The notes beneath the pieces were generated by a model, which saw only the letters and a list, made by a program, of their open reading frames with translations, did no database searches and had not been told where the DNA came from. DNA of 9,984 nucleotides from a virus (Duplodnaviria > Heunggongvirae > Uroviricota > Caudoviricetes): IMG/VR virus record IMGVR_UViG_2703718842_000003. One strand, given 5' to 3'. This document shows positions 1,174 to 9,984 of the stretch, in pieces (position 1 is the first letter of the stretch; every line of letters starts with the position of its first letter). The translations under genes were made by a program, and so were the position numbers.

Positions 1174-3933
1174 TTATTCTTCTGGCTGGCTGCTTTCCTC
1201 ATCCATGAAGTTGAGCACATAAACGCGAATTTGCCGCCCTCCTTCCCTTACCCGCCCCTGATAACCTCGCCCGCTCGTTGGTGGTGTTAGCATTCCTGCA
1301 TTCTTGAGAACTTCGGCAAACTGCCTGACATTAAAACCCCGTGCGATCTCCTGCTCAAATGTTGCCGGGAAGGTGTAGAAAATTATCGGGTCGCCGTCGT
1401 GGTTCCCCTTCTTCCTGTACCCGGCTAAATCACGGATGGGTAAATCGCGCGGGTCATAACCCAGCGGCGCGAATCTACTCAGCCCATAGGCATTTAAAAA
1501 CGCCTCCGTCTGCTCGATGATCTGCTGGTGCTCTTTGTTCCCCGTGCCGAACTCTTTCAGCCATGCGTTATAGGTGTGCTGTATCGCATCCCGGCACGTT
1601 TGAGCATCCCAGCCAGTAACCACGCCACCCAGCAGTAAAGCGGCCTCCAGAATGGCGAACCTCGCCCCTACACGGTGAACCTGTTCCCCATAGTCAGCAG
1701 GGATTAGACTTCGCCATCGGGCTTCACACTCACGAACGGCATCAATCGCCTGCTGCTGGTGGTCTGAAAGCCATCTAATCCACTCCCGCCCGGCAGCGCC
1801 ATGATGGTGCTGGTAAGCGTCTTTCAGCGCGTCGGCGTGATCTTTCCCTGTCTGGTGCTCATGAAAGCGCACCGCCTTACTCAGCGGGATATTCAGCAGT
1901 CGCACCAGTTGCCCCGCTTTTGTCTTGCGTCCTGCGGTGGCGATGAACGTTTCTAAATCCATTTCCCCGGTGCTGATTGCCACGGTGCGCCAGCGTTTCA
2001 GATCCCGGTTGCTTCCTTCCTTTGCTCCCTGCAATTTCCCCACGCCGTTAAACAGGGCATAGGCAGACTGAGAAACGCTTATCGGGTCTGCGCCCTGTCC
2101 GACTTCATCCAGCGGCATCAGCCCGTCATTGTGGGCGGCGGCCTCGTTTATCAGCCCCAGCGCCGTCCCATACCACGTCAGGCGCAAGGCATCAGGGTTG
2201 CCGTAAAGACTGCTCGCCACGTTCTGCGTGGTTGTTTTCCCGGCGCTCGATTGCTCATAAAAATGAATCCCGAATCCGTCACGATCTGCCACCCCGATTA
2301 ATGGCGCTGCCAGTGCTGCGGCGATGCCTGTCATCATCGCGTAGTTGCCGTATGCCAGCCGCGCAACACTGTTAAGCCAGCTTTCAGGCGTTCCTGCTAC
2401 GGTATACCCGGCAGCGGCTGAACTGCGCCCGCTGAACAAAACAGGCCGCTGAGGTGTGCCGATGATTTCCCCGTCCGGCATGATGTATGCCCCACACTGC
2501 CAGCCTGTAGCATGAGCAACGCGCCACAATTCACGCGAGCCGCTTCGCTGTAACCAGTCGGCAAGAATCGCCCGTAGGCTGTTTTTCGTTGTGACGTTGA
2601 CGCCACCAGCTTTCAGGGTGCGCCAGCCTTCACGCTCGCCAATATCAGCCAGCGGGATAGCCGCTGTTGTCGGTATGCCTGCACCAAATGCCAGCCATGA
2701 GATAATAAGATACTGATCTTTGTCGTCGCGTCCCGTGCCGATAACCTCCAACGGTGAACATAACCAGCTTTCAGCGTTGATGATCTCCCCGCTTTCCTTG
2801 TCCACCTTCGGCGTTACCCAGAAAACGCCATCTTTTCGGCTCTCAATGTGGGGTTTTAGTGGGTCTTTCTCTGGATGGTCAGTTTTACCGCCCTCAATGG
2901 CTTGCAATCGCGGTTTCACGGCTTCCCCTTGAATCTGGTACATCGAATCGTTAAACGCAGCCGTAGCGACTTCCAGCCCGTTTTGCTGGCGGTAGTCGTC
3001 CCAGTCGGCTTTGTAGTCTGTCGGCGGCAGCGCCACCCAGCCAGCCACGGATAAGGCGGCTTTCTCTGCGGCATCTTTGCCCGTGTTCGCCTGGTCGTCC
3101 TGCTGGTGGTCGTTATCTGCGGCAATGATAATCTGCGTGGCTGGATATATCCGGCGCATCACTTCGGCAACGGGTAGCAGGTTGCCCGCGTCAATTGCTG
3201 CCACTGCCAGCGCGTCCGGGCGCATCAGGTGAACTGAAAGGGCCGTCGCCAGCCCCTCGGCAATTAAAACGCTCTGCGGCGATTCTGGCGCGTTTACGGC
3301 GTGATATGCCCCGCGCTTTGCTGAACCTGTCAGGAGTCGTTTATCTCCCTGCGGCGTGATGGTCTGCGCCGCCACTACTGCGCCGGATTCATCCACCAGC
3401 GGCAGGAGTAGCGAACCATCAGACATAACCGGGTAATTAAACCCGGTCAGCCCTTTTGATTGCAGGTAATCAGATTCGCCCTGTGTGACACTCTGGCGCA
3501 TTCCGGCATACAGACGGGCAAACGTAGCCCTTCGCTGCTCTGCGTCCTCTGCTGCCTGTTTCTGGCGCTCCTGCTCACGCTGCTGGCGGTCAGCTTCCAG
3601 TTGCTCTCTTCTATGGCTCGCTGCCACCGGGTCGGTTTGCGCTGCCCGGTAATCAATACCCAGCACGTCAGCGGCAAGCTGTGCCGCCTCCGTAGTGCCG
3701 CAGTTGTTAACCCGCTTGATTAAATCCAGCCCGTCACCAGCGCCACACTGGTTGCAGATAAAGCTACCGCGCCCGTTGTCGTCGAATCTGAAACGGTCTT
3801 TTCCTCCACATGCAGGGCACGGAGAATGGCGGCGCGATGAATCAGGCACGTCGATAGACAGGCCAGCCAGCACATAAGGCCAGTTACCAGCGGCGGCGGT
3901 GGTCACTTCGCGGATAAGGTCGATATTACGCAT
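1174..3933 (-). CDS. Primase-helicase, P4 alpha / pri-rep type (919 aa)
   Basis: ATG at 3933 with GGGAGG 9 nt upstream. N-terminal Zn-ribbon CPAC...CNQC (residues 39-63), TOPRIM-like AEGLATA and IIAADNDHQ acidic motif, C-terminal P-loop-like SSAGKTT consistent with a D5/SF3-type helicase. Family call from motif recollection. Confidence 0.9.
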   Translation of the reverse strand: MRNIDLIREVTTAAAGNWPYVLAGLSIDVPDSSRRHSPCPACGGKDRFRFDDNGRGSFICNQCGAGDGLDLIKRVNNCGTTEAAQLAADVLGIDYRAAQTDPVAASHRREQLEADRQQREQERQKQAAEDAEQRRATFARLYAGMRQSVTQGESDYLQSKGLTGFNYPVMSDGSLLLPLVDESGAVVAAQTITPQGDKRLLTGSAKRGAYHAVNAPESPQSVLIAEGLATALSVHLMRPDALAVAAIDAGNLLPVAEVMRRIYPATQIIIAADNDHQQDDQANTGKDAAEKAALSVAGWVALPPTDYKADWDDYRQQNGLEVATAAFNDSMYQIQGEAVKPRLQAIEGGKTDHPEKDPLKPHIESRKDGVFWVTPKVDKESGEIINAESWLCSPLEVIGTGRDDKDQYLIISWLAFGAGIPTTAAIPLADIGEREGWRTLKAGGVNVTTKNSLRAILADWLQRSGSRELWRVAHATGWQCGAYIMPDGEIIGTPQRPVLFSGRSSAAAGYTVAGTPESWLNSVARLAYGNYAMMTGIAAALAAPLIGVADRDGFGIHFYEQSSAGKTTTQNVASSLYGNPDALRLTWYGTALGLINEAAAHNDGLMPLDEVGQGADPISVSQSAYALFNGVGKLQGAKEGSNRDLKRWRTVAISTGEMDLETFIATAGRKTKAGQLVRLLNIPLSKAVRFHEHQTGKDHADALKDAYQHHHGAAGREWIRWLSDHQQQAIDAVRECEARWRSLIPADYGEQVHRVGARFAILEAALLLGGVVTGWDAQTCRDAIQHTYNAWLKEFGTGNKEHQQIIEQTEAFLNAYGLSRFAPLGYDPRDLPIRDLAGYRKKGNHDGDPIIFYTFPATFEQEIARGFNVRQFAEVLKNAGMLTPPTSGRGYQGRVREGGRQIRVYVLNFMDEESSQPEE

Positions 3934-3947
3934 TCGTGTTACCTCCC

Positions 3948-4574
3948 TCAGTGCGCCGCTGGCATTTCAGGCCAGCCGTTTTCATCCAGATCAGCAATGA
4001 AGTGATCGTGTAGCTCTGCCAGCGTTTCACGTCCGAACGGGGTCAGCTCGCCGCGCTCCGTATCCAGCATGGACTGATAAAACACAATGGCTTTTTCCGT
4101 ACCCTGTTCGACGCCGTATCGCTCAATCATTGCGCCCTCGATGTTGTTCGCCATCGCCAGGCGTTCAGCAAACGGGTAAACCACAATGCCCGCTGTGCCA
4201 TTGGAGTAAATCGCCACCTGCGATGATGTGCCGTCAGACTCAGTAACCGTGGTGGTGCCGTTCTCGCGCTTCATCTCAGAAATGAACGTCGCAGCAATCA
4301 GCCAGCGCCACATAGTGACGTTATGCTGCGCGGTGAAGTCGAACCAGCCACGCGCCCCGCCATCAGCAACGGCAAAATGAATGGCGTATCCGATATCTGG
4401 CTTATCGTCGTACTCTCCGGCGTCAAGGCCGTTCACGGCGCTCTCGTAGCTGATAAGAGCAACCTGCTCATATCCCCCGGCATCATTGCGGGTCATGATA
4501 TTGACGCCGTGCGGTGTGGCTTCGGCGTGTAATAAGTCGGCATTTCCCGATTTAATGGTCGGTGCGTTGCTCAT
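3948..4574 (-). CDS. Hypothetical protein (208 aa), first gene upstream of primase
   Basis: ATG at 4574 with GGAGGG 6 nt upstream; TGA stop at 3948 sits inside the primase RBS region; no motif I can assign. Confidence 0.6.
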   Translation of the reverse strand: MSNAPTIKSGNADLLHAEATPHGVNIMTRNDAGGYEQVALISYESAVNGLDAGEYDDKPDIGYAIHFAVADGGARGWFDFTAQHNVTMWRWLIAATFISEMKRENGTTTVTESDGTSSQVAIYSNGTAGIVVYPFAERLAMANNIEGAMIERYGVEQGTEKAIVFYQSMLDTERGELTPFGRETLAELHDHFIADLDENGWPEMPAAH

Positions 4575-4834
4575 GCGCTGCCCTCCGCATCAATTCTGGC
4601 TATATCGACAATCGTCAGGACTTTACTCAGCCAGCAATGCGCGATGGCTGCTTGCTCACCTTCGAGGAGTGGTAATAAATCGGTCATAACGTGAGCCAGC
4701 CCATTGCGGGCGCGGGTCATGCGTTCTGCTGTTCGGTCTGCCAGCGTAAAATCATCCGGGTATGATTCTTTGCGAGATAGCATCGCTTCGGCTTCCAGCT
4801 CTGCCGGGTGGCGGTAGATGGTATTTATGTTCAT
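4571..4834 (-). CDS. Hypothetical protein (87 aa)
   Basis: ATG at 4834 with GAGGTG upstream; its TGA stop overlaps the ATG of the 208-aa gene (ATGA overlap, 4571..4574), indicating translational coupling. Confidence 0.5.
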   Translation of the reverse strand: MNINTIYRHPAELEAEAMLSRKESYPDDFTLADRTAERMTRARNGLAHVMTDLLPLLEGEQAAIAHCWLSKVLTIVDIARIDAEGSA

Positions 4835-5010
4835 GCTGCCACCTCACGAATGCGGGTAATCTGGATGTGGGAAAGGCGTTCATTTCTGGCCTGATTTAGC
4901 GCCTCAGCTTTGGCGCTGATCGCGCTGCGGGCGTCAACGATATAAACGAACTCGACTAATTCGCCGCTCCGGGCGGTGGCGCATCCTGCAACACGGAAGT
5001 AATTAAGCAT
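4831..5010 (-). CDS. Hypothetical small protein (about 59 aa)
   Basis: Six-frame ORF 4831..5100 begins with TTG; internal ATG at 5010 has GGGGG about 6 nt upstream and overlaps the stop of the Ash/Icd frame by 8 nt; its stop overlaps the next start (ATGA at 4831..4834). Confidence 0.45.
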   Translation of the reverse strand: MLNYFRVAGCATARSGELVEFVYIVDARSAISAKAEALNQARNERLSHIQITRIREVAA

Positions 5011-5194
5011 GTGCGCCCCCTGTGCGAATACGTCCGGCAAAAAAGCAGACGTGATCGCGCACCAGAGAACGGCGAGCATCGCGTTCAGACTCGGCAGCAA
5101 TATGATGAATTTTGGCGGTAATTGTCGGCATGTCGCGGCGAACTGCTGCGATAATCCAGATAAATTGCGGTTTTTTGGTAGGGGTAGTAGCCAT
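5003..5194 (-). CDS. Icd-like host cell-division inhibitor family-like small protein (63 aa), nested in-frame in the Ash-like ORF
   Basis: Perfect AGGAGG (plus-strand cctcct 5204..5209) lies 9 nt upstream of ATG at 5194; product MATTPTKKPQFIWIIAAVRRDMPTITAKIHHIAAESERDARRSLVRDHVCFFAGRI matches my recollection of Icd-like proteins of enterobacterial prophages/satellites. Confidence 0.55.
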   Translation of the reverse strand: MATTPTKKPQFIWIIAAVRRDMPTITAKIHHIAAESERDARRSLVRDHVCFFAGRIRTGGAHA

Positions 5195-5332
5195 TATGGC
5201 AGCCTCCTGTAACTGGGATTTATTCCCACCACCGGAAACGCCAATTTCACTGGTGGTGAGCTGAACAGGGTTGGCGTAACCGGCGTTACAGGAAACCGGC
5301 GCGGATCGCTCCGCCCCCATCCAGCCCACCAT
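5003..5332 (-). CDS. Ash-family-like protein (about 109 aa if started at MVGWMG); true start uncertain because the frame stays open up to 5962
   Basis: Segment MVGWMGAERSAPVSCNAGYANPVQLTTSEIGVSGGGNKSQLQEAAIMAT resembles Ash-family N-termini as I recall them; the frame is continuous with the Icd-like reading frame. Weak RBS at 5332; alternative in-frame ATGs at 5728 and 5791. Confidence 0.45.
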   Translation of the reverse strand: MVGWMGAERSAPVSCNAGYANPVQLTTSEIGVSGGGNKSQLQEAAIMATTPTKKPQFIWIIAAVRRDMPTITAKIHHIAAESERDARRSLVRDHVCFFAGRIRTGGAHA

Positions 5333-5764
5333 TACTTTTTGAGCAATATGGGCTATAGCCATATCGCCGGGAAAGAGGTGTGCAGATGCGAGGACACAAA
5401 AAAAGACGCTCGGCGCGTCATGTGTCGCCTGTAACATTATCAGGACGCCAATCCCGGCACCAGATTTTGCTGGCGCGCTATAACCATAAACCGGGTTGGC
5501 GATAGTCGGCAAGCCCTTTTTTATGGACTCCGAATACTCACCTTCTCGCGTAACGACCCCTAAAAAATCTTCCAGCGCACGCGTATTTGTCTCGAAAGTC
5601 GATGTGGAACGGTTCACAACGGTAGCAATCCAGTTCATACCACCAGCTAGCAGAAGGAATTTATTCCCCACAGCCAGCTTTTTTGAGGTTATTTTTTCTT
5701 GGTTTAAAATGTCATCATTTGTCGTCATCCCCCGTGCGTGGATGTCAGGTTTTGACAGGTTCAG

Positions 5765-5861
5765 GCTAAGTTTTGCTAAGTCCTTAGCCATAACAATTGA
5801 TAACAGGTAATCGTTCACAACCTTAGGTTTTATAAGGTTCTGAGGGTTAACATTTGTTAAC
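5765..5861 (-). promoter_or_regulatory. Palindrome-rich AT-rich putative operator region upstream of the Ash/Icd-primase gene block
   Basis: GCTAAG at 5765 and perfect palindrome GCTAAGTCCTTAGC at 5775..5788; TAACA direct repeat flanking CAATTG (5791..5805); palindrome AACCTTAGGTT at 5819..5829; two GTTAAC hexamers 4 bp apart at 5846..5861. No convincing sigma70 -35/-10 pair identified by eye. Confidence 0.3.
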
Positions 5862-5900
5862 AGGCTAGCCAGATTAAAGGCTTCTTTCTGGGCGGCAGGT

Positions 5901-6083
5901 TCATTCAGTATCACGGCGCACCTCCACGAACTCCTTAACGAATCTCTCCAAAGGCTGAACACATGGCGACTGATAGCCCTCGCGGTAAAAGGTCACTCGG
6001 TTATGCTCGACGCGCTGTACGGTCACTACAGCCCCGTGACTGTCCTTGTAACGGCTTCCCGGCATCGGATTATGGTTACGCAT
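5901..6083 (-). CDS. DUF4222-like small protein (60 aa)
   Basis: ATG at 6083 with GGAGGT 5 nt upstream; sequence PGSRYKDSHGAVVTVQRVEHNRVTFYREGYQSPCVQPLERFVKEF resembles DUF4222 proteins common in enterobacterial prophages (recollection). Confidence 0.6.
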   Translation of the reverse strand: MRNHNPMPGSRYKDSHGAVVTVQRVEHNRVTFYREGYQSPCVQPLERFVKEFVEVRRDTE

Positions 6084-6909
6084 GGTTTACCTCCAGACGT
6101 TTAGCGAGCCAGCGTTGCGACAGGCGGGTGAGTTCTCCTTTGCGCTGCTCATATTCCATGCCCATATCAATTAACGTGATATTGGTGCTTTCGAGATAGG
6201 CGAGGTGTTCAAGCTGTGCTGCGTTCATGCTGTCCCGTGGTTCGCCAGTAATGCCATTTGCCTGCGCCCACTGCTTCGCCGTCATGCCACCCAGCACGAT
6301 ACGGGCGATCATGTTGCTCTCGTTGCTGTAGTGGCGCTGCTGCGTCGTTTTCCCCTGCTCGGCACGGGCCATATTCAGCGCATCGCACATTGGCTTAAAG
6401 TTGTTTGCGGCACTGATACGGGCTTTTAGCTGGCGACGATAGCGGGCGGCGATTTCAGGCACGGTACGCTGTAATTCTTCCTCGCACTGGATGAAATAAC
6501 GGCGGATAGCGCGACCCTGATCATTGCGTTCGATCATTGCCAGTTCTTTCGCCATTCCGACACTTAACAGATAGTCTTTGCCGGGTCTGCCAGAGTGCTT
6601 TATCTTGCTGTAAGCCGCGCCATTCGGGCTTTTCCCCAAATTTGGGGAAATTGTTTTATGGACTGAGTAATCGTGCCCAATGGTGAAGTCATATTCAGAG
6701 ATGCGATCAGTGATCCATGTAGAGAAGTCTTTTCCCACGCCCAACGCTTTGTGTAACGCTTTTGCGCTAACAATATTGGTTTCACGCCCACCGATATGAC
6801 CAGGAATAACCGGGACAATTGCGGCAAATTCATTACCGTTAATTGTGCCCTGATAGGCGTTCAGATGAGGGGCGGCCTCAGAAATTAATCTGCTTTTTTC
6901 GATGTTCAT
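6076..6909 (-). CDS. Phage antirepressor-like protein, AntA/KilAC-type (277 aa)
   Basis: ATG at 6909 with GGAG 7 nt upstream; N-terminal NIVSAKALHKALGVGKDFSTWITDRISEYDFTIGHDY matches the AntA/AntB antirepressor N-domain pattern; stop overlaps the DUF4222-like start region by 8 nt. Confidence 0.7.
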   Translation of the reverse strand: MNIEKSRLISEAAPHLNAYQGTINGNEFAAIVPVIPGHIGGRETNIVSAKALHKALGVGKDFSTWITDRISEYDFTIGHDYSVHKTISPNLGKSPNGAAYSKIKHSGRPGKDYLLSVGMAKELAMIERNDQGRAIRRYFIQCEEELQRTVPEIAARYRRQLKARISAANNFKPMCDALNMARAEQGKTTQQRHYSNESNMIARIVLGGMTAKQWAQANGITGEPRDSMNAAQLEHLAYLESTNITLIDMGMEYEQRKGELTRLSQRWLAKRLEVNHA

Positions 6910-6921
6910 TTTCAGTCTCCG

Positions 6922-7356
6922 TTAGGCGGCGGTGAGATTGTCCGGGTATAGATTGAGAATGTCGGCAATTTCAGGCTGAGAAAGTCCCTGATAGCCCCCA
7001 GCGTCGGCGTTATGGTTCACAAGCCGAATAACTTTTAGAACGTCACCGCGCCCGGTAAAGCGATAGCGTAAATGTGACCCGATCCCGTCGGGATTCTTTT
7101 CGTCGATACGCTCTAACTGAATATCAAGCCTGCGTTCTAACTCGCTGGCGTAGTTCCTTCCAGACGAAAGGCGGCAGTAGCGCAGAATGTCGTTTTCTGT
7201 CCATCCCTCTACCCCAGTGCGTAGCATATAGACGCGGGCGCGGTGCTTCTTCGGTGTGCGGCGTGGCGCTTGTGTGGTGGGCGCTGGTGGCGTAACATCA
7301 GATCCGCGAATATCTATGTTAGCCGCCTGCTGTCCGGGGCGGTTTTCTTTTTTCAT
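6922..7356 (-). CDS. Hypothetical protein (144 aa) with a basic, proline-rich N-terminus
   Basis: Start ATG shares one nucleotide with the alpA stop (TGATG, plus-strand catca at 7354..7358), so it is translationally coupled to alpA; no motif assigned. Confidence 0.6.
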   Translation of the reverse strand: MKKENRPGQQAANIDIRGSDVTPPAPTTQAPRRTPKKHRARVYMLRTGVEGWTENDILRYCRLSSGRNYASELERRLDIQLERIDEKNPDGIGSHLRYRFTGRGDVLKVIRLVNHNADAGGYQGLSQPEIADILNLYPDNLTAA

Positions 7357-7574
7357 CAGGCCACCTTCCCGCGACGCTCTGCCAGCCAGTTGTTAATCTC
7401 TACCGCATCAAAGGCGGTAATCTTCTCGCCCAGCTTTACCGGGCGCGGCAGAACCCCATTGCGAACTTTGCGATCAATGGTGGAAACGCTAACGCCCAGC
7501 AATTCAGCAAGGCGGAAGCGTCGGATATAGCCAGATTGGGGGATTGTGTGGGTTGTTGCGTTATGTGTTGCCAT
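7356..7574 (-). CDS. alpA: AlpA / excisionase-family HTH regulator (72 aa)
   Basis: ATG at 7574; core RLAELLGVSVSTIDRKVRNGVLPRPVKLGEKITAFDAVEINNWL follows the AlpA/Xis-type winged-HTH pattern (HTH, then G.FP.P.klG, then a conserved W). Confidence 0.8.
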   Translation of the reverse strand: MATHNATTHTIPQSGYIRRFRLAELLGVSVSTIDRKVRNGVLPRPVKLGEKITAFDAVEINNWLAERRGKVA

Positions 7575-7685: not shown

Positions 7686-8609
7686 TTATCGGTTGACTCC
7701 CCCTTTTCGCAGCCAATCTATAAGCGTCTTATCATCATCCGGGAGTGGTAGCTCCTCACCTTTATTGTTAGCTTTATTTCTCAGTTGTGTAATGCTGCCT
7801 TTTAAATCACTATCGGTTAAGCCTATACGTTTAAGTAATGCGACAATTAGTCTCATCTGTTTTTCTGTTGTTTTTACTGGTTTTCCTACATTCATTTCCG
7901 TCGGCGGTAAGGGAATAACACCTCCGTTAATCATGCTTTTAATCGGCTCGCCTGTGTCTATTGCGTCTTTGAGTTTTAAAATGGTATCTCTGGCAATAAA
8001 TAGATCGGAAGTTGTCAAAGTCTCATTAAGCGCAGGTTTTCGGCTCTCACTTAACTGAAACCCTATGCTTTCGGTTAGTTGTCTGTTTAGCGTAGGTAGC
8101 CAGCTCTGATTAAAATATCTATCGCTAATTATCTGACACGAAAGGCCAGTCTTCTCGCGGAAAGTGTCCCATCCGAACGGCCTGAAAATTGTCGTGTCTA
8201 TCACCCTTGCCCTCTTAGAATAAAGAAGACTTTCTATTTCACTGTGTCCCAGACACCATAGCCCGTTCGCCAATCCTCTAAATAAAATAAGCCCACTATC
8301 TGTTTTGTATGCGTCATGTTCGGTGAGCGTGGAATTAAAATGAGATATATAGTTGCCCTCACGAAAAAGAAATGATGAGTTTCCTTTGTGTTCGTGATAA
8401 AACTCAATTGGGTCTTTTATATCTTTACCGCCTATAAAAGCCAAAGTAGAAGAAAATCCTCTCATCATTATACACAACGGTATAGCCCCAATAACTCCAT
8501 AGTGAAGTAAATCATCTGTATCGCATTGCAAAATACTAGCTGCCCTGTCGAGCTTAAAGTATTCCATAGGTGGGATTTTAATACTGCTGTGGGCTTCTTT
8601 TTTGGTCAT
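7686..8609 (-). CDS. Orphan hypothetical protein (about 307 aa from ATG 8609; 312 aa if GTG 8624), AT-rich cargo-like gene between int and alpA
   Basis: Long ORF with AGGTG 5 nt upstream of ATG 8609; sampled 60-nt lines are roughly 35-40% GC versus roughly 55-70% in int and primase (hand counts); no family motif recognised. Confidence 0.7.
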   Translation of the reverse strand: MTKKEAHSSIKIPPMEYFKLDRAASILQCDTDDLLHYGVIGAIPLCIMMRGFSSTLAFIGGKDIKDPIEFYHEHKGNSSFLFREGNYISHFNSTLTEHDAYKTDSGLILFRGLANGLWCLGHSEIESLLYSKRARVIDTTIFRPFGWDTFREKTGLSCQIISDRYFNQSWLPTLNRQLTESIGFQLSESRKPALNETLTTSDLFIARDTILKLKDAIDTGEPIKSMINGGVIPLPPTEMNVGKPVKTTEKQMRLIVALLKRIGLTDSDLKGSITQLRNKANNKGEELPLPDDDKTLIDWLRKGGVNR

Positions 8610-8641
8610 CGCGTCACCTTTCACGCTGTGCCTTAAAGAGT

Positions 8642-8697
8642 GATTGAGCCAGGCGGTAAGGCTTCCCGCTTTTCGCCCCGTCGGGCTAGGCTCAATC
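8642..8697 (-). other. Compound hairpin in the int / cargo-gene intergenic region
   Basis: 9-bp inverted repeat GATTGAGCC (8642..8650) / GGCTCAATC (8689..8697) enclosing a GC-rich inner palindrome (GCCCCGTCGGGC, CCCG..CGGG); no clear U-tract on the minus-strand transcript. Confidence 0.35.
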
Positions 8698-8724: not shown

Positions 8725-9984
8725 TTACTTCGCCTTTCTCAGCGGTGTAACGTTGTACTCTTCGCCGCGCTCCAGTGCCACCAGCAATCCCGCCCACTGT
8801 GTTAACGCGGCCCGGCGTTCATCAAAGTATTGGTGGCGGTTATAGATACCCTCCACGCCTTTAATTTTGTGGTTAAGGCATCTTTCTGCGACTACAGGAT
8901 CAACGCCCAGCGCGGCTAAATGGGTGCGGGCCGTGCGCCGGAAGTCGTGAATAGTGAAATTCGGCACGTCCGGCATTTCAGCGCGAACCTTCGCCAGCGC
9001 AACGGGCAGGGTGCTTTCCTGAATATGGGGGATCATGCGGTTTTGCATCTTTCTGGCTGGCAGTACCCATGCGCTGTTGCATGAGAACGTTTTAAGCTCT
9101 CTCAGCCATTCGACTGCTGGCGGTGCTAATGGAATGTCTATAGCGTCGCCGTTTTTGCTGCGTTCCTCTGGCAAGCGCCATACGGCTTTATCAAGATCGA
9201 ACTCCTCCCAGCGGGCGGCGCATAACTCCATTTTGCGGACGCATAACGCTAACAGTAATTTGAACGTGATTTCATTCTGGCGACTGAAACCCTTAGCCGT
9301 GCGCATGGCTTTGAATAGCTGGATTAACTCATCGCGTGTTAGCCAGCGGTCGCGGCTAACCTCCTTCCCTCCAGCGTCTGCCACCTCAAAGGCTGAACAG
9401 GGGTTAATCTCCAGCGCGTGCCGTTTGATTCCGTAGTCGAATATGCGGCGCGTCCATCTCAGCACGTCCGTTGCTATGGTCGGCGCTCCACGGTCAACAA
9501 TACCTTTCAGCATGTCGTCGATATGGCGCGGCTTCACGTCCTCTACCTTCATGCTGCCAATGCAGGGGTTTATATCTTTGTCGATACGGCGGCGGAGTAT
9601 ATCGGGGTGCTTCCAGCGGGGCAGTATCTGACGTTCAAAGTATTCAGCGGCAAGCTCTGAAACGCGCATGGCGTTTTTTTCTGCTTCCATCTTCGCTAGT
9701 GCTTCGGATTTCCGCTCCTGCTTCTCCCCGGCAACGTCATAACCCAGCGCAACACGCGCCGAAAGCTCCTTTGCTGTCTCTCTGGCCTTTGATAGTGATA
9801 GCTCGCTATACGAACCAATTAGCATTGCGCGGGACTTCCCTGCGAGTTTATAGCGGAATCTCCATGTGGGGGTTTTGTCGGCTTCACGGTAACGCAGGTA
9901 TAAGCCGTTCCCGTCCGCCCGTCCCTCGAATCGCTCTCCGGCCTTTATCCACGCGCGGATCTGCATGTCTGTGAGTTTTGGCAT
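8725..9984 (-). CDS. int: Tyrosine site-specific integrase, P4-type (419 aa)
   Basis: ATG at 9984 (window edge, upstream signals not visible); catalytic-region motifs HDFRRTARTHLA (HxxR) and GIYNRHQY (tyrosine nucleophile context); N-terminal arm-binding-type domain typical of P4-family integrases. Confidence 0.9.
   Translation of the reverse strand: MPKLTDMQIRAWIKAGERFEGRADGNGLYLRYREADKTPTWRFRYKLAGKSRAMLIGSYSELSLSKARETAKELSARVALGYDVAGEKQERKSEALAKMEAEKNAMRVSELAAEYFERQILPRWKHPDILRRRIDKDINPCIGSMKVEDVKPRHIDDMLKGIVDRGAPTIATDVLRWTRRIFDYGIKRHALEINPCSAFEVADAGGKEVSRDRWLTRDELIQLFKAMRTAKGFSRQNEITFKLLLALCVRKMELCAARWEEFDLDKAVWRLPEERSKNGDAIDIPLAPPAVEWLRELKTFSCNSAWVLPARKMQNRMIPHIQESTLPVALAKVRAEMPDVPNFTIHDFRRTARTHLAALGVDPVVAERCLNHKIKGVEGIYNRHQYFDERRAALTQWAGLLVALERGEEYNVTPLRKAK

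Follow-up and report, generated by a model that had tools for sequence, protein, structure and literature searches.

The analysed window, a stretch of 9,984 nucleotides assigned to the Caudoviricetes, carries an island with the gene order integrase, AlpA, AntA, DUF4222, immunity module, and P4-family primase (1174-3933). From alpA (7356-7574) downward, the genes upstream of the immunity module overlap each other, antA occupying 6076-6909. The features from the DUF4222 gene to the gene that follows icd are listed below.

5901..6083, minus strand: DUF4222 gene, upstream of the long ORF (Pfam PF13973, E 1e-22)
5003..5914, minus strand: long Eta-like ORF, named "Ash/Icd-like" by PGAP; it likely starts at GTG 5914 and has 303 codons up to TAA 5005-5003
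5490..5914, minus strand: N-terminal extension of the long ORF, variable and mosaic between islands, with 44.5% GC
5483..5512, minus strand: putative internal promoter (PLE-like), -35 TTGCCG 5512-5507, 18-nt spacer, -10 TATGGT 5488-5483
5399..5476, minus strand: isrK/seqA-like RNA element (Rfam RF01394, 72.2 bits; gathering threshold 50)
5337..5398, minus strand: spacer between the two RNA elements, holding the hairpin GATATGGCTATAGCCCATATTGC
5249..5336, minus strand: C4/CI-type antisense immunity RNA (Rfam RF01695, 76.9 bits; gathering threshold 45)
5195..5248, minus strand: icd leader with downstream (seqC-like, a2/b2) targets, complementary to C4
5003..5194, minus strand: icd, nested in frame, Kil homologue, 63 codons with its own Shine-Dalgarno (SD) sequence AGGAGG and ATG 5194
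4831..5010, minus strand: next operon gene, which starts at ATG 5010, has 59 codons, and shows an 8-nt overlap with the icd stop

The ORF listing of the window showed that the minus strand had no stop over 329 codons (5992..5003), and a 319-aa ORF running from GTG 5962 to the stop at 5005-5003 was listed within this run, in agreement with the initial annotation, which had described the frame as open from 5962 to 5003. Judging from the sequence, GTG 5914, which is preceded by an SD sequence (GGAGG, 5925-5921), is the likely start of the long ORF, and the same 303-aa ORF was called by PGAP in a 97%-identical locus (L001). Since GTG 5914 and its GGAGG overlap the DUF4222 stop codon (5903-5901), the arrangement suggests that translation of the long ORF is coupled to that of the DUF4222 gene. 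The overlap with the DUF4222 gene noticed earlier is 62 nt long when counted from GTG 5962 and only 14 nt from the likelier GTG 5914. When the region 4901-6100 was subjected to 2000 dinucleotide shuffles, the longest open run averaged 119 codons (sd 28) with a maximum of 281 codons, against the 329 codons observed, and the probability that the 425-nt N-terminal part is open was estimated from base composition to be ca. 2e-4. The view that such openness is unlikely by chance was therefore borne out, and a chance ORF was ruled out by the shuffles together with the frame conservation across loci. The region had also been called AT-rich, which holds only mildly (44.5% GC in 5490-5914 and 50% overall).

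The RNA elements of the immunity cassette and the putative promoter lie inside the long ORF. The putative promoter matched only 8 of 12 consensus positions and did not reach the threshold set in the consensus scan, and a sigma-70 scan of the minus strand over 4900-6200 reported no promoter; its proposal is based on conservation and on the parallel with P4. The hexamers and their spacing were kept across loci while the spacer sequence varied, and P4 has TTGCCT-18-TATAGT equally far from its isrK/seqA element. From the hexamers at 5512-5483, a putative transcription start was placed at ca. 5476, inside the long ORF. The isrK/seqA-like element contains the upstream C4 target sites ATTGGCGT (5452-5445) and GTTACAGG (5435-5428), and a terminator scan detected an intrinsic terminator in it, consisting of a hairpin (5419-5405) and a U run. 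The c4-a1b1 model (RF03163) overlapped isrK with 39.1 bits, under its threshold of 46.7. In the spacer hairpin GATATGGCTATAGCCCATATTGC, compensatory changes were visible across loci. The C4 RNA carries its recognition sequences in a loop (CCUGUAAC, 5292-5285) and in a single-stranded part (UACGCCAA, 5278-5271), and the downstream targets in the icd leader are ATTGGCGT (5245-5238) and GTTACAGGAGG (5213-5203), the latter covering the icd SD sequence AGGAGG (5208-5203). The cognate duplexes of C4 were calculated at -32.0 kcal/mol with the upstream isrK target and -40.3 kcal/mol with the icd-leader target, and the whole leader (5480-5185) folded at -123.3 kcal/mol (z = -4.4). Among 26 loci, the C4 recognition regions were of 18 distinct types, co-varying with both targets; the cognate duplexes averaged -34.7 and -36.1 kcal/mol, while the non-cognate ones averaged -23.2 and -24.7 kcal/mol.

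The Pfam model Phage_ASH (PF10554) matched aa 160-263 of the ORF with 84.9 bits (cut-off 26). This match, which corresponds to nt 5485-5174, is coextensive with the isrK-C4 RNA cassette. The initial annotation had recognised an Ash-like protein stretch of 46 codons; the match extends over ca. 104 codons, most of which belong to the C4/CI antisense RNA and to the isrK/seqA element, including its intrinsic terminator.

Homologous islands with in-frame stops or frame-breaking indels had been named as what would speak against the long frame. Of 91 distinct related loci, 90 had the frame open and kept its register with respect to both isrK and C4, and the remaining one carried a 1-nt deletion; these loci are phylogenetically related, and locus counts of this kind, as well as the Fisher test, overstate their independence. 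In the 26 loci analysed first, the frame of the long ORF had 0 stops in 5139 codons, versus 244 and 286 in the other two frames. The distance from the start of isrK to the start of C4 was 185, 140, 128, 125, 101, or 98 nt, all of which equal 2 mod 3, and spacer lengths differed between islands by multiples of 3 only. The mosaic, non-conserved N-terminal DNA was free of stops in every locus back to the upstream stop. At the junction with the upstream gene, a start codon and an SD sequence were found in related loci, and the nearest in-frame start was located -11 to +2 nt from the stop of the upstream gene in 85 of 87 loci. An ORF of 225-400 codons is retained in five lambdoid phages whose cassette is located within an operon, whereas the P1-like phages D6 and RCS47, in which the same RNAs stand at the 5′ end of the operon, have stops in the register of the long ORF, both between isrK and C4 and after C4. 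An open frame forced by RNA conservation alone was ruled out by these stops, and also by the openness of the non-conserved N-terminal DNA. The long open frame is real and selected, and selection keeps it open and coupled.

The last 63 codons, which had been read as an Icd-like product with its own AGGAGG and ATG at 5194, matched the NCBIfam model for Icd-like proteins (NF033153) with 67.4 bits (cut-off 25) at aa 267-314. The dN/dS values of icd were 0.20-0.35, indicating purifying selection on icd. The long ORF was in frame with icd in 39 of 90 related loci and in the +1 frame in the remaining 51, where it shares the frame of the gene after icd (here 4831..5010). The +1 frame across icd was free of stops in all 51 loci in which the ORF uses it, versus 10 of the 39 loci in which the ORF is icd-framed. 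In two loci, L022 and L023, icd was fused to frames of 432 and 313 codons, respectively; no match to C4 or isrK was obtained there even at E <= 0.1, and a brief alignment, fold, and duplex search yielded no convincing RNA partner.

The N-terminal extension is variable. Coverage of 5490-5914 reached 80% or more in only 29 of 5426 E. coli genomes, and among the variants the extension ranged from 28 to 212 codons and could be aligned at both ends only. It contains direct DNA repeats (5747-5864) and repeat-like units near 5540-5610. A peptide repeat was considered and rejected: since the spacings (26, 28, 32, and 79 nt) are mostly not multiples of 3 and the repeats in related loci fall in different reading frames, these are DNA-level repeats. 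TRF found nothing in L024. The segment 5333..5728 holds both the internal putative promoter and DNA repeats.

The dN/dS of the extension was 0.5-1.3, no better than in other frames, and ca. 1 for divergent pairs. Against close relatives it was 0.48-0.65, with 12 of 23 changes at third positions, and these values are compatible with a weak protein-level constraint on the extension. From isrK to C4, third positions showed no excess variability (entropy of 0.58, 0.58, and 0.56 at codon positions 1-3). Weak peptide similarity (38-46%) persisted among E. coli and Klebsiella homologues of the extension, and all 105 homologues detected were N-termini of PF10554-containing ORFs or fragments thereof. 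Outside the RNA-encoded stretch, the long ORF had no Pfam match. AF2 gave no confident fold upstream of Icd (pLDDT <40 there and 32 for the 303-aa ORF), which is weak evidence as the model was built on only 14 sequences. No amino-acid-level selection is apparent upstream of icd. The segment 5333..5728 had been described as open and protein-like; it is open, and its protein-like look does not reflect amino acid conservation.

These features make the long ORF the island's copy of the eta/kil arrangement of phage P4, a kind that is already known. BLASTP aligned the ORF of the window with residues 10-189 of P4 Eta (40% identity across 181 aa, E 6e-26), and Icd aligned with P4 Kil inside this alignment. 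In P4, C4 and isrK lie inside the 197/214-codon eta ORF in the same register as here, and the RF01695 model also found the P4 CI RNA inside eta. This homology and the open frame in 90 of 91 loci support the proposal made in the initial annotation of an Ash-family ORF that is extended at its N-terminus and has nested in it an Icd with internal initiation; taken as a whole, however, its interpretation was only partly supported. According to the summary of Forti 1999 in PMC10111431, P4 eta/kil consists of a long gene translated across the RNA immunity switch with kil nested in it, and translation of Eta is reported there to be functional; the P4 immunity mechanism is treated also in PMC4825925. 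Like the island, the P4 eta/kil and CI immunity system (seqA-cI-seqC, PLE/PLL, timm) has a long ORF coupled to the upstream gene and containing both the isrK/seqA element and the C4/CI RNA, and the RBS of its short in-frame nested gene is covered by a target. The internal promoter of P4 is PLE, and its PLE-like counterpart here is putative. The two systems differ in the upstream partner (DUF4222 preceded by AntA here, Vis/AlpA in P4), in the N-terminal extension (ca. 142 codons versus ca. 26), in the isrK-to-C4 spacing (140 nt versus 185 nt), and in the genes after icd, the island being without epsilon. The C4 recognition sequences also differ from those of P4, which implies a different immunity specificity.

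The immI system of P1/P7 likewise has a C4 RNA with two recognition elements pairing with upstream and downstream targets, the downstream target lying over the icd RBS, and icd is the first translated gene after C4. Its order c4-icd-ant with an untranslated cassette at the 5′ end of a C1-controlled operon was not found here: in the P1-like phages D6 and RCS47 the cassette heads the operon outside any ORF, whereas here it lies inside a coupled ORF, and ant follows icd in P1-like phages, whereas the island has antA upstream (6076-6909) and no ant after icd. The IsrK/orf45/anrP locus of Salmonella Gifsy-1 resembles the island in that the terminator of isrK is leaky and a C4-like RNA produced by processing (STnc1160) comes after it, and translation and translational coupling through the isrK region control downstream expression there (PMC4825925). 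In Gifsy-1, the start of the short orf45 lies downstream of isrK, orf45 is coupled to the antirepressor gene, and IsrK activates in trans; in the island, by contrast, the long ORF begins far ahead of isrK and runs across it. As for existing annotation, the ORF of the window scored above the cut-offs of both PF10554 (PGAP: "ash family protein") and the model for "host cell division inhibitor Icd-like protein". In relatives, the identical ORF is annotated by PGAP, whose treatment of equivalent loci is inconsistent: some are given one fused ORF, others a pseudogene with icd as a separate gene. Since the conserved columns of Phage_ASH coincide with the RNA cassette and codon-type constraint is absent here, the name says little on protein function.

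Based on these results, we consider it probable (roughly 80%) that the region is a P4-type immunity/anti-immunity module of a P4-like/PICI-type satellite island, in which translation from upstream overrides RNA-mediated termination and transcripts from the internal promoter give the immunity RNA. The transcription start, RNA processing, Rho-dependent termination, and anti-termination by translation are taken over from P4 and P1, and the regulation would be as described below. Transcripts from the internal promoter (ca. 5512-5483) would begin at ca. 5476 and be initially untranslated. They would end at the isrK terminator, or processing would free a C4/CI RNA of ca. 88 nt, which would pair with the isrK sites and with the icd leader including its SD sequence and thereby block icd translation. 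By analogy with P4 and P1, C4 pairing would also lead to premature Rho-dependent termination before the replication genes, and the block of icd together with early termination would constitute the immune, quiescent state. On transcripts of the upstream operon, ribosomes would move from DUF4222 into the long ORF via the overlapping stop and start (GTG 5914) and cross the promoter region, the isrK terminator, C4, and icd without a break. Their passage would prevent RNA structure, RNA pairing, and Rho from taking effect, and it is proposed that the operon is read through as a consequence. Icd (Kil-like) would also be made alone from its internal start once the leader is free.

With regard to the long ORF itself, we are inclined, by a modest degree of belief, to think that the "Ash/Eta" ORF is conserved only as a track for ribosomes. 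The amino acids upstream of Icd would then be essentially unconstrained and the Pfam Ash family would reflect the isrK and C4 RNAs in translated form, with selection acting only on the open frame, on its coupling to the upstream gene, and on its reach past icd, whether it ends as Icd or runs out of frame into the next gene. The design would recur wherever an operon encloses the cassette, as in satellites and lambdoid phages, and would be missing from P1-like phages, in which the cassette heads the operon.

It is unlikely that the long ORF is instead a working protein, that is, a multi-domain regulator of the Bro-network/antirepressor type with a variable N-terminal specificity domain and real Ash and Icd domains, which the RNAs merely overlap. 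Phage_ASH has been treated as a Bro-network domain subject to domain swapping (PMC10111431), and in some lambdoid phages the same ORF runs on into an antirepressor-annotated region; the dN/dS of 0.48-0.65 with some third-position bias against close relatives and the 38-46% peptide similarity among E. coli and Klebsiella homologues also fit a protein. However, the variation from isrK to C4 lacks codon periodicity, dN/dS is ca. 1 in divergent pairs with other frames no worse, and the DNA repeats of the extension are read in differing frames. A working protein would moreover have to accommodate a C-terminus that alternates between Icd and an out-of-frame reading of icd (51 of 90 loci) and a largely mosaic extension of 28-212 codons, with no predicted fold and no Pfam match beyond the RNA-encoded stretch.

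The opposite idea, that the ORF is untranslated, a by-product of conserved RNAs that happen to be stopless in one frame, would make the Ash family an annotation artefact, as happened with the P4 "ash/cI gene product" ORF, which later proved to be an RNA gene (annotation; PMC4825925). While the coextension of the Pfam Ash domain with the RNA cassette, and variation that tracks RNA features and not codons, agree with this idea, we regard it as highly improbable, as the mosaic N-terminal DNA is stop-free in every locus with a start and SD sequence at the junction, the frame survives spacer indels, and the frame over icd is held open exactly where the ORF uses it. Besides, P1-like phages with the same RNAs have stops, and for P4 a functional translation of Eta is reported in PMC10111431. 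Least credible of all is the suggestion, also made in the initial annotation, of a separate unannotated gene at 5490-5914 that became joined in frame to Ash/Icd solely in this island. The N-terminal part is indeed variable and missing from the majority of E. coli islands with the RNA cassette, but the segment ends with its own stop in no related locus, and islands with other N-terminal DNA show the same continuous frame. Every N-terminal homologue (105/105) heads an Ash/Icd-type ORF, being the N-terminus of a PF10554 ORF or a fragment thereof, which argues against such a fusion.

The reading of the region as a P4-type module explains a recurring puzzle in the annotation of enterobacterial satellite islands, where "ash family" or "Icd-like" ORFs of 200-350 codons, sometimes flagged as pseudogenes, are found: such ORFs would be read-through genes of the eta type, each belonging to an RNA immunity switch. 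For these ORFs, the Ash name and the Pfam family carry little information on protein function, and the annotation omits the functional core, namely the internal promoter (putative here), the terminator, and the antisense RNA. The comparative data suggest that the ORF is kept for the act of translation and not for its product. The known mechanism is left unchanged and is extended to this island family, whose many immunity specificities, seen as co-varying sets of loops and targets, could be used to predict cross-immunity among islands.

The initial annotation had reported a minus-strand frame without a stop from 5962 to 5003, and this frame was present in the window: the ORF listing gave a 319-aa minus-strand ORF from GTG 5962 to the stop codon at 5005-5003, and the stop-free run around it comprised 329 codons (5992..5003). 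When 4901-6100 was shuffled 2000 times with dinucleotides preserved, the maximum stop-free run over all frames was 119 codons on average (sd 28) and 281 at most, and base composition gave a probability of ca. 2e-4 for a 425-nt N-terminal part free of stops. The long frame is thus real and not a chance event, as had been argued for a region called AT-rich; with 44.5% GC in 5490-5914 and 50% in the ORF overall, that description is only mildly apt. The nested icd gene starts at ATG 5194 behind AGGAGG (5208-5203), the signals that had been proposed for an Icd-like part. The in-frame start nearest to the upstream gene's stop, and the probable start of the long ORF, is GTG 5914; it lies behind GGAGG (5925-5921) and has a 14-nt overlap with the end of DUF4222. 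PGAP uses the same start in the related loci L001, L029, L031 and L032.

The following features were found by Rfam, Pfam, NCBIfam and a terminator scan.

RNA elements and domain matches
5336-5249, minus strand: C4 antisense RNA (Rfam, 76.9 bits; gathering threshold 45)
5476-5399, minus strand: isrK element (Rfam, 72.2 bits; threshold 50)
5419-5405, minus strand: hairpin of an intrinsic terminator at the isrK end, followed by a U run (terminator scan)
5485-5174, minus strand: Phage_ASH, aa 160-263 (Pfam)
aa 267-314 of the long ORF: Icd-like model (NCBIfam)
8630-8696, minus strand: int-alpA RNA RF02996 (Rfam, 64.9 bits; gathering threshold 35.8)

A c4-a1b1 match overlapping isrK scored under its own Rfam threshold. 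Since the Phage_ASH span runs precisely from the isrK element to the ribosome-binding site of icd, the codons that had been read as Ash-like are primarily two genes for structured RNAs, together with the target sites of these RNAs. The Ash-like reading stands as a Pfam match, but it was superficial and overlooked the RNA genes, the terminator and the candidate internal promoter.

The C4 RNA carries two recognition sequences, CCUGUAAC in a loop (5292-5285) and the single-stranded UACGCCAA (5278-5271). Complementary sites are found in isrK, GTTACAGG (5435-5428) and ATTGGCGT (5452-5445), and in the icd leader, ATTGGCGT (5245-5238) and GTTACAGGAGG (5213-5203), the last of which spans the Shine-Dalgarno sequence. 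Among 26 loci there were 18 distinct C4 recognition regions, with which both target sets co-vary; cognate duplexes averaged -34.7 and -36.1 kcal/mol, as against -23.2 and -24.7 kcal/mol (sd 4.4-4.5) for non-cognate ones. For the leader 5480-5185 the folding energy was -123.3 kcal/mol (z = -4.4). The RNA switch of the window is intact. A conserved candidate internal promoter, TTGCCG-18 nt-TATGGT (5512-5483), stops 7 nt short of the position where the isrK model begins, and P4 has TTGCCT-18 nt-TATAGT at the same place; in a consensus promoter scan the window's candidate fell below the threshold. Directly upstream of it are repeat units of the form GRAKTTT...YACGCG (5540-5610 and 5747-5864), also seen in relatives (L009 2036-2183, L014 2055-2185, L024 1816-2125), with spacings of 26-32, 63, 79, 117 and 123 nt that are mostly not multiples of 3; upstream of these units there is also a 41-nt repeat bearing AACCTnnnAAAACCT motifs. 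Copy number differs among islands, and the frame is nonetheless open. These repeats may be binding sites.

Relatives were drawn from 23 loci (one genome per species of Enterobacterales), E. coli relatives and 80 IMG/VR loci, in which isrK and C4 were located with Rfam or with nhmmer profiles built from Rfam hits, giving 91 distinct sequences. The search for in-frame stops or indels, which the initial annotation had named as a check, found one frame running without a stop from ahead of isrK across C4 in 90 of 91; its register never varied, with a codon boundary where isrK begins and an offset of 2 where C4 begins. The sole break, in L035, is a 1-nt deletion (isrK-to-C4 spacing of 139 nt, about 2220-2360), due to decay of the element or to an error in sequencing. 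Distances from isrK start to C4 start were 185 (P4), 140, 128, 125, 101 and 98 nt, all 2 mod 3. Over 5139 codons in the first 26 loci, the ORF frame held 0 stops and the other two frames 244 and 286, and the open stretch always extended back past the upstream gene's stop codon. That gene is of AntA/Bro, DUF4222 or AlpA/Vis type across related loci, and in 85/87 loci the closest start codon in the ORF frame is between -11 and +2 nt from its stop, with the junctions ATGA, TAATG and ATGnnTAA.

According to Mageeney et al. 2023 (PMC10111431), who cite Forti et al. 1999 in describing phage P4 eta, P4 Kil is a truncated Eta made from an internal translation start, the full-length form depends for its translation on an upstream late promoter alone and is translationally coupled to the alpA homologue, and translation of Eta prevents termination; relatives of CI and seqA are detectable with the Rfam models C4 and isrK, and the module type was already noted in PICIs. 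CI pairing with seqA and seqC was summarised by Hershko-Shalev et al. 2016 (PMC4825925). Direct inspection of P4 (L027) revealed a 214-codon open frame downstream of vis that includes the 197-codon eta, holds isrK (1693-1616) and C4 (1508-1421), and ends in the 65-codon Kil. The window ORF (303 aa from GTG 5914) matched P4 Eta with 40% identity over 181 residues (E 6e-26), and Kil aligned with its Icd part. The window module belongs to the known P4 eta/kil immunity kind, and the first reading in the initial annotation, a long ORF with a nested Icd, was right. The anatomy, homology, co-variation and frame selection of the module are shown by these data. Older P4 annotation calls part of the eta ORF "put. 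ash gene" or "cI gene product", and this labelling is the origin of the Pfam name. In a comparison at L027 889-1176 and 1169-1813, Eta matched PF10554 and epsilon PF25738. A survey of P4-like elements uses PF10554 as epsilon marker, though P4 epsilon matches PF25738; its marker hits thus report the RNA immunity cassette and not epsilon.

An independent function of the encoded protein is unlikely. Column entropy across the candidate promoter, isrK, spacer and C4, computed for 14 loci with the 140-nt spacing, was 0.579, 0.582 and 0.555 by codon position, with no third-position excess of variability, and variable columns were concentrated in recognition loops and compensating stems. Against close relatives, dN/dS was 0.48-0.65 for the N-terminal extension, 0.19-0.32 for AntA and 0.20-0.35 for icd; in divergent pairs that of the extension was 0.5-1.3, not below the other two frames. 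The extension is a mosaic of 28 to 212 codons across loci, its DNA repeats are read in different frames, and AlphaFold2 gave pLDDT <40 everywhere upstream of Icd (shallow alignment). The ORF shares the icd frame in 39 loci, the window and P4 among them, and is +1 to it in 51, where it runs through icd, usually to the next gene's stop; the +1 frame across icd was stop-free in 51/51 of the latter vs 10/39 of the former (Fisher 2e-15, phylogeny ignored). Taken together, these observations indicate that an open, coupled frame reaching past icd is conserved, not the peptide. We incline, by a narrow margin over even odds, to the view that conservation of the ORF serves solely to provide a track for ribosomes, the Ash family being a shadow of the RNA.

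That the ORF is itself an untranslated shadow is very improbable. In the P1-like D6 and RCS47, where isrK, C4 and icd lie at the 5' end of the immI operon, the equivalent register is interrupted by stops both in the isrK-C4 interval and beyond C4; thus, the RNA sequences alone do not impose an open frame. The cassette lies mid-operon in five lambdoid phages (SfV, 118970_sal3, phiP27, cdtI and an Stx2a phage), and a 225-400-codon ORF in the same register was kept in 5/5. A separate gene fused in frame is hardly credible; homologues of the extension occur only as N-termini of PF10554 ORFs.

Our preferred reading, with a probability of about 0.8, is that the window module operates in the same way as that of P4. 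Where transcription starts, how the RNA is processed, the role of Rho and the anti-termination are inferred from P4 and P1. Untranslated transcripts from the internal promoter would yield C4 RNA, which would mask the icd ribosome-binding site and permit premature termination ahead of the primase gene. On transcripts from the upstream operon, ribosomes would move on from DUF4222 to the long ORF and traverse the entire cassette, upsetting terminator formation, RNA pairing and Rho access, and the Kil-like Icd would additionally be made alone from its own start.

PGAP is inconsistent on equivalent loci (L002 1781-2344 and L030 1372-2046 vs L001 5204-6115), calling one fused "Icd-like" ORF or an "ash family" pseudogene with the C-terminus missing plus a separate icd, the latter even with a continuous frame, as in L002. 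An Icd-like C-terminus is also fused to a 432-codon frame (L022 1385-2683) and a 313-codon frame (L023 1736-2677), from a Paenochrobactrum-labelled MAG and Rosenbergiella; neither had a C4 or isrK match at E <=0.1 or an ATG directly ahead of the Icd part, and their common blocks suggest a different, uncatalogued cassette.

Within window 4571-7574 (minus strand), almost every gene between alpA (7356-7574) and 3948-4574, these two included, has an overlap of 1-14 nt with its neighbours (7356/7356, 6083/6076, 5914/5901, 5010/5003, 4834/4831 and 4574/4571), the sole break being a 12-nt gap from 6922 to 6909; this chain of starts and stops suggests translational coupling through most of the operon. 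The int-alpA RNA is flanked by the integrase gene (8725-9984) on one side and by the next gene (7686-8624) on the other. An iteron-like array (887-1148), in which TGTTGTCTCA occurs seven times in direct orientation (887-1077) and three times inverted, as TGAGACAACA (950, 1120 and 1138), is probably the island's replication origin; the array is directly downstream of the primase gene (P4 family; 1174-3933, minus strand).
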